IMG/VR virus record: IMGVR_UViG_2718218131_000011
Location: 20,026 to 84,025 of that record
DNA from: a virus
Taxonomy: Duplodnaviria; Heunggongvirae; Uroviricota; Caudoviricetes
DNA length: 64,000 bases
Strand: one strand, 5' to 3'
Part shown: positions 9,506 to 11,074 of the stretch, one piece after another
Numbering within the stretch: the first letter of the stretch is position 1
How the letters are laid out: the number at the start of each line of letters is the position of its first letter
Translations under genes and position numbers: made by a program
Notes under the pieces: generated by a model
Database searches by the model: none
Told to the model about the DNA's origin: nothing
Seen by the model: only the letters and a program-made list of their open reading frames with translations

Positions 9506-9607
9506 AAGTTCCCTCCTACGTTGTCAGGAGGTAATGGTATGCAAAGTAACTTCTCAACCGGTCATGTTGCTTGACATCCTCCACGTCCTTTAGAGCGTGG
9601 AGGATGT

Positions 9608-10450
9608 GTGCGCCCAGCATGGGCGCGATCTTGGAGGTGAAAGCCCTCCCGCGAGCTGACCACAGCGAGCGAAATGAAGTGCAACTGCGTGAGGGCGACC
9701 GGGCGTGGGGAGGAAGCACGGAATGAACCCGTGAGCCGATGAACGAGAATCGGATATGAGGCGCGATGGAGCAAGGCGAGCAGGCACATCACTGCGAAGC
9801 TTTCGTGGTCAAGTCGAAGTCGCGCAGATCCGACGGTTGTGCGGGGAAGGATCGCGTTCTTACCTGGGGAGTTCTCGCCTCATGCCTGAAAGGGCAACGT
9901 CGTAAGACGGAGCGAGAAGTCAGCAGAGGCCGTAGTAGTCAGGACTCCGACGAAGGGCCGAACGAGAAGGAAAGCCAGAAGATATGACTCTTGACAGGAC
10001 ATTGCGTCAGAAGCCGGGGAAGCCCGGTACGGACCCGCATGCCGGGTGGTGTGGCAGGGGCGCAGCCCTTGTGCTCCCCCCTATGCCGATCAAGCAGAAC
10101 ATTGTGCTGGGCCTCTGACGCAGCTCCTTGATGGTCTTGGCATCGTGCTTAAGTGGATTGGTGTCGTCCCTGATAGGATCATGGAGGCAGAATGAAACTC
10201 AAAAATCCGGGATAGCACGCAAAACAGGCTGCACAAAAAGCGCAGGTTGCGTAGGAGTGAAATCCCGCTCCCAAAAAATGGTGCAGAAGTTGCGGCAGTG
10301 GTCATCCGACGCACTGGAAAATAACAAACCCGCCGTGACCAGAATCGGAGGCCTGAGGGAGTGACCGAAAAACCGGACAACCCAGGCAGCAAATACCCGC
10401 TGGATGAGGCATGGTTCCGGCAGATAATACCGAAAACCGCCAGACACACT
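9608..10450 (+). mobile_element. group II intron 5' fragment (domain I-III-like RNA, degenerate ORF region, no reverse transcriptase)
   Basis: Starts GTGCGCCCAGCATGGG (canonical GUGYG 5' end; close to the Ll.LtrB start as recalled); GC-rich with many GNRA-capped stems (e.g. CGUC-GUAA-GACG); domain-IV position has MKLKNPG then a stop; no RT-sized ORF on either strand; sits 1 nt after a perfect 11-bp stem-loop (9575-9606). Confidence 0.5.
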
Positions 10451-10510
10451 GGATAATCAGTAGAAATAATCCATTAAAGTTATTATAATAATTGGTCACA
10501 TTATTATATT

Positions 10511-11074
10511 ATGCTGAACAATAGAAATATGACTATTAATGAACTTAAAGACTGTATTCACTATGAAGTAATTGGTAGCGAGCGTCCTTTCTCTTGGCGA
10601 AAAGCAATTGTTCGCGCAATAAAACATAGAAGAGTTCGTTATTTATTTTGGTGGCGCATATCAAAATATCTTTTTGATAAAGGCGGATACAGGCGAAAGG
10701 TTGCAGGGAAAATAGAACGCTTCATTCTTGACAAATACAATGTAACCGTTCCCTTAACGGTAAATATAGGGAAAGGGTTTGACATATCTTATCTCAATGG
10801 CGTTGTTATCGCTCACAAAGTCACAATCGGTGAAAATTGTTCAATTAAGCCCGGAGTAACTATTGGACTTCGCGGGGAATTTAATGACATGGATATTGTT
10901 ATAGGAGATAATGTGACCATTGGTTGTAATGCCACCATTCTTGGTGGCAAAGTGCGTATAGGAAACAATGTCACAATAGGTGCTCATGCATTGGTATTGC
11001 ATGATATTCCTGATGATTCAACATTCATCACTAAATTTCAGTCTGAAGTTATCTGCTCGTCCTCCCGCACATAA
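10511..11074 (+). CDS. hexapeptide-repeat O-acetyltransferase (WcaF/WbbJ/LacA-like, left-handed beta-helix)
   Basis: 187 aa; repeated [LIV]-G-x-x-x-x-I hexapeptides ([16 protein letters not shown]...[34 protein letters not shown]); AT-rich gene; 3' end overlaps the tfa 3' end on the opposite strand. Confidence 0.75.

Follow-up and report, generated by a model that had tools for sequence, protein, structure and literature searches.

What has become of the host-range switch in a P1-like phage-plasmid that carries a single tail fibre gene, and what might the acetyltransferase-like gene beside that fibre contribute? Both questions are raised by a 64,000-nucleotide (nt) stretch of DNA (positions 20,026 to 84,025 of the IMG/VR virus record IMGVR_UViG_2718218131_000011), which we call the window and in whose coordinates all positions are given unless another replicon is named. 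A preliminary description of positions 9506-11074 had proposed that the invertible C-segment of P1 and the cin invertase were replaced here by an intron remnant plus an O-acetyltransferase. Our analysis shows a mosaic locus in which the P1 switch has been exchanged for a 4.6-kb foreign cassette (9573-14169) that holds a group II intron, a fragment of a tape-measure gene, the acetyltransferase-like (AcT) gene, the fibre assembly gene tfa and the distal part of the fibre gene S. We are confident of this architecture and of the fixed fibre that goes with it. The whole explanation, from the architecture through to a role of AcT in envelope modification, has in our judgement slightly better than even prospects.

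The P1 fibre switch and its replacement

Alignment to P1 (NC_005856) gives 98% identity on the left up to window position 9572 (P1 31252) and 97% identity on the right from window position 14170 (P1 36337) onwards. Since P1 homology stops at the first of these positions and restarts at the second, P1 31253-36336 is missing, an interval that by the P1 annotation contains lydC, cin with its promoters and enhancer, cixL, Sv′, U′, U and most of Sv. The gap in the alignment bears out the replacement of the C-segment and cin that had been claimed. As to what replaced them, the interval is indeed foreign, but the word remnant is imprecise for the intron, and about 350 nt of a tape-measure gene fragment (10091-10443) had been overlooked.

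The final P1-type gene ahead of the left junction is the lydA holin gene (9176-9505, minus strand), which is 98% identical to P1 lydA and matches Pfam Phage_holin_3_3. The late promoter LPdar is kept from P1, with its −10 and −22 boxes at 9534-9552 (minus strand) as mapped through the P1 annotation and the alignments, and the left joint, between 9572 and 9573, lies about 20 bp past it; this joint is illegitimate. The right joint lies inside S, 134 bp distal to the cixR recombination site and within the extent of the P1 C-segment, in an inverted-repeat part of S that is common to the fibre genes of many phages. The P1-type proximal part of S (14170-15674, minus strand) is 97% identical to P1 from 36337 and includes 134 bp of the P1 C-segment.

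Searched by tblastn with P1 Cin, neither the window (best E = 3.5) nor a complete sibling plasmid, pHYEC7-mcr1 (NZ_KX518745.1; best E = 0.066), yielded a homologue of Cin; the latter is a published mcr-1 plasmid and is 98.9% identical to window 1-20370. The Prokaryotic Genome Annotation Pipeline (PGAP) annotation of pHYEC7-mcr1 holds no resolvase-type recombinase, its sole entry being the tyrosine recombinase Cre ("site-specific integrase"), and no resolvase domain was found in the parts of the window that differ from pHYEC7-mcr1 (ParA/ParB variants, an IS21 element and sim-like proteins). Searching the window by tblastn with S, U, U′ and Tfa returned one fibre gene, S, and one tfa only. The early statements that there is one fibre with one Tfa and no serine recombinase open reading frame (ORF) are thus both upheld by these searches. 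The accompanying statement that no cix-like site is present was wrong, as a perfect cixR (14304-14323; 20/20 match to P1 cixR; no strand assigned) lies inside S. No second cix-like site with at most five mismatches occurs in the window or in pHYEC7-mcr1, so neither a cin nor a pair of cix sites flanks the fibre genes.

The locus therefore lacks what makes up a P1-type invertible C-segment, namely cin, an inverted pair of cix sites and two Sv/U arms. With a lone cix site, no invertase and no alternative arm the fibre cannot switch, and the phage would make one fixed fibre. The proposal of a fixed host range is well supported by the absence of cin, cixL and a second Sv/U arm, only the orphan cixR being left. 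This site would be a fossil, because inversion requires two sites and an invertase, and it would have been kept because it falls in a conserved coding part of S. One could suppose instead that the fibre locus is still switchable through an invertase supplied in trans, either a host Pin-type enzyme or a cin beyond the 64-kb window, acting on cixR and a cryptic site. Pin-family invertases are encoded by E. coli cryptic prophages, and cixR is perfectly conserved. The surrounding coding sequence is, however, 97% identical to P1, so that conservation of cixR needs no site-specific function, no second site at the threshold given above exists in the window or the sibling plasmid, and the window has no alternative Sv/U arm that such an invertase could bring into use. 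We regard continued switching as very improbable and treat the single fibre as fixed.

Relatives of the locus and published variants

The region around the cassette is, on sequence grounds, part of a P1/P7-like phage-plasmid. Its left-hand genes correspond by ORF sizes and P1 gene order to the P1 dar/lysis operon (ddrB, ddrA, darA, hdf, lydB, lydA), and the flanks are 97-98% identical to those of P1, with hdf-lydB-lydA-LPdar on one side and Sc-R-16-bplA on the other. The P1/P7 switch and the window share the same backbone, the same position and an identical cixR, but the window is without cin, cixL, lydC, the Sv′-U′ arm and P1's U/Sv, and has one fibre with a lambda-type Tfa. About 26 E. coli plasmids of 91-140 kb, pHYEC7-mcr1 among them, match positions 9300-11300 at 99.7-100% identity. 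P1-type lydA-lydB is present in 474 PLSDB plasmids, and the cassette junction is found in 34 of these with the intron and in 2 without it. The single-fibre architecture is real, yet it is common in public data and close variants of it are already in print.

P1-like phage-plasmids spread resistance genes, mcr-1 and blaCTX-M for example, and the cells that they can infect depend on the fibre locus. That about 36 of the 474 P1-type plasmids in PLSDB have a single, fixed, borrowed fibre in place of the two-state switch bears on host-range prediction and on P1 delivery vectors.

In a comparison of P1-like phage-plasmids, lydC-cin-Sv′-U′-U-S was described as one of eight variable regions ("variable region 3"), and for phage JL22 (ON018986.2) a replacement by tfa and a "serine acetyltransferase" was noted, the presence of which was called "still unknown" (PMC9603915; Microbiol Spectr 2022). 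JL22 resembles the window in having a cassette of tfa, stf and a "serine acetyltransferase" in place of P1 U and Sv. In contrast to the window, it has retained lydC, cin, cixL, Sv′, U′ and cixR, so that a complete invertible segment surrounds its cassette, and it has neither the intron nor the tape-measure fragment; its acetyltransferase, SacF (gene sacF), is a distant member of the family that has kept the catalytic His and Glu. Altered cin and/or C-segment regions have also been reported in pJIE250-3, pSvP1 and pTZ20_1P by Venturini et al. 2019 (PMC6906374), who infer that the fibre switch has been lost and that the host range is narrowed. There cin has been truncated or inverted, for the most part through IS-mediated rearrangement, whereas the window shows a clean absence of the gene and an apparently intact fibre operon. 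An intron is mentioned in neither PMC9603915 nor PMC6906374.

A group II intron in its hairpin target

The cassette begins with a foreign hairpin piece of 35 nt (9573-9607, plus strand), with a stem formed by 9578-9585 and 9596-9603 (CTCCACG/CGTGGAG) and followed by AGGATGT, which is the 5′ exon and target of the group II intron that follows. The intron (9608-10090, plus strand; 483 nt) begins with GTGCG, ends with GAT and is without an ORF, the one for the intron-encoded protein having been deleted; it is identified by Rfam matches and by an empty allele. Of the Rfam models for domains D1-D4, RF02001 matches at 9689-9859 (97 bits, E = 1e-19) and RF01998 at 9877-9958 (47 bits). The match to the D5/D6 model RF00029 is weak, at 17 bits against a gathering score of 40, and ends exactly at 10090. 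The intron aligns with both ends of a full-length, 1.8-kb intron of Polaromonas JS666, at 85% identity over the first 420 nt and at 84% over the last 68 nt, but is without approximately 1.35 kb that contains ltrA in the copies of Polaromonas and E. coli; one of its stem pairs, as read from the alignment, is mismatched relative to the Polaromonas copy. A 98%-identical full-length intron with ltrA is present in the chromosome of E. coli MFDS1022581. The empty allele is found in the P1-like plasmid NZ_CP033848.1, which is collinear with the window minus exactly 9608-10090. A single-sequence RNA fold of the intron (z = −2.2) says nothing about group II architecture.

These data suggest that the element is a non-autonomous intron that has lost an internal part but kept its ends, and that occupies its natural target, for which an empty allele is known. 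The earlier term remnant fits poorly, since both termini are present and a sibling plasmid has the empty site, and the same two facts rule out a 3′-truncated dead remnant. Two other assignments were rejected. Positions 10091-10440 are neither a part of the intron nor a remnant of its encoded protein, as they belong to the tape-measure gene fragment, and the hairpin at 9578-9603 is not an intrinsic terminator, there being no T-run after it on either strand and no entry for it in the terminator-scan output.

The 5′ exon, that is the hairpin with AGGATGT, is common to four independent intron copies, located in the window, the E. coli chromosome, Polaromonas and, after ccdB, an F-like plasmid. The hairpin element also occurs by itself (approximately −27 to +5) elsewhere in E. 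coli replicons at 95-100% identity, and the empty allele therefore holds a complete natural target. A different history for the intron-free sibling allele would be precise loss of the intron, the intron and its 35-nt 5′ exon having arrived together as one fragment of an F-like plasmid. Consistent with this, the 13 nt ahead of the hairpin (GACATCCTCCACG) are the sequence that follows ccdB in the F-like plasmid carrying the intron fragment, and homology to the tape-measure gene begins no more than 2 nt from the insertion point. Against it stand the occurrence of the hairpin target without an intron at other E. coli locations and the rarity of precise genomic intron loss in bacteria, and we consider loss possible but rather unlikely. 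Insertion into a pre-existing target is the history that we prefer.

For splicing or movement an intron of this kind would depend on a reverse transcriptase/maturase provided in trans; on splicing, the predicted ligated-exon junction is GGAGGATGT joined to CAAGCAGAAC. The intron would have no necessary role in the locus. Like known ORF-less bacterial group II introns, it has GUGCG...AU termini, recognisable domains D1-D3 and a deletion of nearly the whole ltrA ORF; it differs from them in that D5/D6 gives only a below-threshold match (17 bits). In the occupied and empty alleles, E. coli provides a natural system for testing the mobilisation of ORF-less group II introns in trans.

The full-length relatives of the intron lie directly downstream of an IS200/IS605 tnpB in both Polaromonas JS666 plasmid 2 and E. 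coli MFDS1022581, and the lineage seems to be specialised for the hairpin at the right end of IS200/IS605 elements. In the stretch retrieved from the Polaromonas plasmid the intron occupies 3010-4841 and a tandem second copy (4842 onwards) begins at the last base of the first, and in the stretch retrieved from MFDS1022581 it occupies approximately 4029-5860. E. coli plasmid p504211_50 has, at approximately 3497-3709, 213 nt from the 5′ part of the intron together with a 5′ exon whose hairpin is similar, located between a truncated ccdB and sopA of F-like plasmids, and matching fragments of the intron occur in further E. coli plasmids.

Origin of the cassette

Directly after the intron lies a decayed internal fragment of a P2-type tape-measure gene, gpT (10091-10443, plus strand; approximately amino acids 713-840 of 1335), which has 74-75% nucleotide identity to gpT of E. 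coli prophages. Its tblastn match (E = 7e-17) is split over two frames, with frameshifts and stop codons. Beyond the AcT gene, described in the next section, tfa (11038-11655, minus strand) encodes a lambda-type tail fibre assembly chaperone (Pfam Caudo_TAP, E = 3e-39; PHROG 105) and has 87-88% nucleotide identity to the tfa genes of lambdoid phages. Next comes the distal, receptor-binding part of S (11655-14169, minus strand), which is foreign, has no close P1 homology, only patches of 71-78%, and contains Collar and Gp34_trimer domains. Within it 11655-12287 is 94% identical to the stf gene of phage vB_EcoM-613R2, and the whole unit 10441-12287 is likewise 94% identical to that phage; similar units occur in plasmids of 48-50 kb.

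A P2-like prophage of E. coli has the genes FI-FII-E-T-U (sheath, tube, E, T, U) followed by an AcT gene with 92% nucleotide identity to that of the window, and after it, convergently, tfa, the fibre gene H, I, J, W and V. The gpT fragment, together with the order T-U-AcT-tfa-fibre in such prophages, is the reason for regarding the donor of the cassette as P2-like. The cassette would have come from a P2-like prophage with loss of the 3′ part of T and all of U. Relative to the published variants, the exact joints, the orphan cixR, the gpT pseudogene that types the donor, and the ORF-less intron with its empty allele and hairpin target are new here.

Three further observations concern the fibre module. 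In the intron-free sibling NZ_CP033848.1 the tfa and fibre genes are separated by a gene for a macro-domain protein (4888-5790 of the retrieved stretch) that the window lacks; the fibre module is therefore variable even within the cin-less lineage. Internal direct repeats of approximately 80-180 nt and 73-76% identity at 12599-14192, in the foreign part of S, show up as off-diagonal matches between the window and its near-identical sibling and are fibre-shaft motifs. The Rfam small RNA candidate family IS009 matches at 11114-11312 (minus strand) with 75.9 bits, under its gathering score of 117, and the match lies wholly within tfa; it most likely reflects similarity to tfa sequence and not an RNA gene.

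The AcT gene and its distribution

The AcT gene (10529-11074, plus strand) encodes a 181-amino acid LbetaH (hexapeptide) acetyltransferase-like protein, or 187 amino acids if the start at 10511 is used; its homologues and RefSeq use the ATG at 10529. It converges on tfa with an overlap of 37 nt, and its region has a guanine-cytosine (GC) content of 33-39% compared with about 50% in the flanks. The AT-rich hexapeptide ORF convergent on and overlapping the 3′ end of tfa (10511/10529-11074) had thus been described correctly. A candidate sigma-70-like promoter, TAGAAA-17-TATAAT (10461-10489, plus strand), matches the consensus at 10 of 12 positions and lies in the unit 10441-11074, which is conserved wherever the AcT gene occurs. 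The gene has the layout of a prophage moron, being on the strand opposite to the late genes, deviant in GC content and preceded by a site that is promoter-like by its consensus; no terminator was identified for it.

Of 5426 complete E. coli genomes, 244 contain the gene with its 70-nt leader, at 276 places in all, of which 219 are chromosomal. For most of the matches listed, the gene that its 3′ end overlaps carries the annotation tfa. In all four loci inspected, in P2-like, lambdoid and P1-like settings, AcT is convergent to tfa and the protein is of the type that has Tyr in place of the catalytic His; in the enterotoxigenic E. coli strain H10407 it stands at the end of a lambdoid prophage after J-lom-stf-tfa. 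Distant homologues of the His type were found beside tfa in a P2-like prophage, at a prophage edge, and as solitary chromosomal genes in Citrobacter, Pantoea and Pluralibacter.

The company of tfa in P2-like and lambdoid prophages, together with the occurrence of a relative in the intact cin segment of JL22, shows AcT to be a passenger of the tfa/fibre arm. Loss of cin is an event separate from the presence of AcT. The notion of AcT as a stand-in for cin fails, because AcT rides with tfa and its JL22 relative lies inside an intact cin/cixL/cixR segment.

The AcT protein

The protein matches Pfam Hexapep with 51.7 bits (cut-off 27), and its repeat glycines and isoleucines are invariant across 35 homologues, which places it in the LbetaH superfamily. 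The best NCBIfam matches are EpsC (81 bits), CysE (72) and WcaB (62), with cut-offs of 150-211, and the protein belongs to PHROG 2154, a group of unknown function. No Pfam membrane domain is present, and the AlphaFold2 (AF2) model, an N-terminal helical domain followed by a beta-helix, looks soluble. The integral-membrane acyltransferase-3 (AT3) domain is likewise absent, the Pfam match being of the Hexapep type only; the Oac/OafA enzymes of seroconverting phages are of the AT3 family. The AF2 model has a mean pLDDT of 73, with only the N-terminal helical domain confident and the beta-helix moderate, and is uninformative on the active site. Foldseek against PDB gave no match at E ≤ 0.001, the top weak matches being serine acetyltransferases.

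Our conclusion about the active site is drawn from alignments with PDB entries and with database homologues. When solved CysE structures are aligned, the catalytic His of LDHATG corresponds to Tyr94 and GDRHP corresponds to NDMDI. In an alignment of 113 database homologues of at least 140 amino acids, Tyr occupies the His position, and Thr, Lys or Val that of Asp/Glu, in each of the 15 with 52% or more identity to the window protein (one cluster has 783 members), whereas 97 of the 98 more distant ones keep His. The window protein has Thr at the Asp/Glu position, and Pro114, Met127, Asp128 and Cys139 are fixed, clade-specific residues nearby. The ratio of nonsynonymous to synonymous substitution rates (dN/dS) is 0.08-0.10 among close members of this Tyr94 clade and 0.05 between two members at 53% identity. 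Low dN/dS together with fixed, remodelled residues argues for a selected, functional protein and not for a decaying gene. A fibre-linked "serine acetyltransferase" clade that is without the canonical catalytic dyad yet under strong selection is also new here; the literature on characterised prophage "serine acetyltransferases" beside tail fibre genes yielded only table annotations and the JL22 remark that the reason is unknown.

Is the protein then a genuine serine O-acetyltransferase CysE with a metabolic benefit? RefSeq names it "serine acetyltransferase", and its best PDB and NCBIfam sequence matches are CysE/EpsC, but it reaches only 72 bits against 211 in TIGR01172 and 46 against 397 in the full-length CysE model NF008349, both LDHATG and GDRHP are replaced, and it has 181 amino acids with a short N-terminal domain against 273 for CysE. 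We hold this identity to be highly improbable. About 4.5% of complete E. coli genomes carry the gene, and its annotation is that of an enzyme of cysteine biosynthesis, an identity that is almost certainly wrong.

The preliminary description had allowed that AcT might prove to be a xenobiotic enzyme of the Vat/CatB type, which would mean antibiotic resistance on a phage-plasmid that carries resistance genes. Vat models do match locally, over one or two hexapeptide turns, and sibling plasmids carry mcr-1. These matches score 22-25 bits against cut-offs of 300-475, well behind EpsC, CysE and WcaB, and so the enzyme is not of the Vat/CatB type; moreover, the amrfinderplus annotation in PLSDB gives only mcr-1 in the listed half of pHYEC7-mcr1 and nothing at AcT, and the gene is found mostly in chromosomal prophages. 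A resistance function is accordingly the least credible of the roles considered here, on a par with continued fibre switching.

Possible roles of AcT

What function is then under selection? We propose that AcT would be a functional, prophage-expressed passenger of the fibre/tfa module, transcribed in the lysogen from its own promoter in the manner of a moron. It would most likely act on an envelope acceptor that is made at the cytoplasmic face of the membrane, an intermediate of lipopolysaccharide, enterobacterial common antigen or colanic acid, and the altered acceptor would lower adsorption of phages with the cognate fibre. Lysogenic conversion by acetylation of a glycan or polysaccharide, as had been suggested earlier, is a plausible hypothesis in view of the linkage to tfa, the promoter-like site and the WcaB/EpsC-like family. 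Taken by itself, this envelope-modification role is tentative.

Several points weigh against this account. The absence of cin beyond the window is known from one sibling plasmid, about 99% identical to the window over the fibre region. The AcT promoter is a consensus match. O-antigen and capsule clusters contain none of the homologues examined, several of which stand alone on the chromosome, and the linkage to tfa could reflect hitch-hiking at the edge of a module. No NCBIfam model is matched at its cut-off, and canonical O-acetyl transfer is in doubt because of Tyr94 in place of His and Thr, Lys or Val in place of Asp/Glu.

The last of these points suggests that the LbetaH protein may be no usual acetyltransferase but a pseudo-enzyme or the carrier of a new chemistry. 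It might bind CoA or a sugar, poison a host LbetaH trimer (that of WcaB, for instance) through mixed trimers, or serve in superinfection exclusion or defence. Such a non-canonical or non-catalytic role is about as likely as envelope modification, and we advance it with the same reserve. In its favour are the replacement of His and of Asp/Glu in every homologue at least 52% identical, set against the near-universal His of the distant ones; the clade-specific residues P114, M127, D128 and C139, which line the same region; the strong purifying selection; and the position of AcT directly after tfa in P2-like prophages. In P2 the moron slot next to tfa is occupied by Z/fun. On the other hand, a PADLOC scan of AcT for known defence systems gave nothing credible (best E 0.035), the hexapeptide core and its glycine positions are fully conserved, and the loss of His is no proof of lost catalysis, since some LbetaH acyltransferases (N-acyltransferases) are active without a catalytic His.

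The two ideas could also meet. The Tyr94 clade moves with tfa among P1-like, P2-like and lambdoid phages, and may represent a distinct class of fibre-linked prophage factors that mask or alter the receptor of their own fibre by a new chemistry or mechanism. They could do so, for instance, by N-acylation, by a mechanism based on Tyr, or by entering a host LbetaH trimer with a dominant-negative effect. We offer this as a speculative extension that is less probable than either idea alone. Should AcT alter a phage receptor, superinfection or serotype would have a widespread determinant that has been overlooked.

For envelope modification the closest precedent is NeuO of prophage CUS-3, an LbetaH polysialic-acid O-acetyltransferase that is encoded beside the tailspike gene and has the catalytic His and phase-variable repeats. 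NeuO and AcT would share the arrangement of a soluble hexapeptide acetyltransferase beside a receptor-binding gene, which makes NeuO a precedent for cytoplasmic modification of a phage's own receptor; AcT differs in belonging to another LbetaH subfamily, in having Tyr for His and in having no repeats. PDB entry 2wlc, a "polysialic acid O-acetyltransferase" of unstated source, matches AcT weakly (E = 1.2e-3). With the WcaB/EpsC/CysE branch AcT shares the best sequence matches and the succession of an N-terminal helical domain and an LbetaH region, but it scores far under the cut-offs of these families, has His, Asp/Glu and GDRHP replaced, and does not lie in a polysaccharide cluster.

Other features of the window

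A complete porin gene of the OmpC/NmpC type (Pfam Porin_1, 495 bits) is present at 717-1829 (minus strand) and is annotated ompC in pHYEC7-mcr1. Lambda Stf uses OmpC, and a phage-encoded porin together with a lambda-Stf-like fibre may bear on receptor use or exclusion. An IS21-type element (a protein with rve/Mu-transposase C-terminal domains plus IstB) lies at 47696-50114 (plus strand) and is not found in pHYEC7-mcr1. The ParA/ParB genes at 35869-38083 differ between the window and pHYEC7-mcr1.

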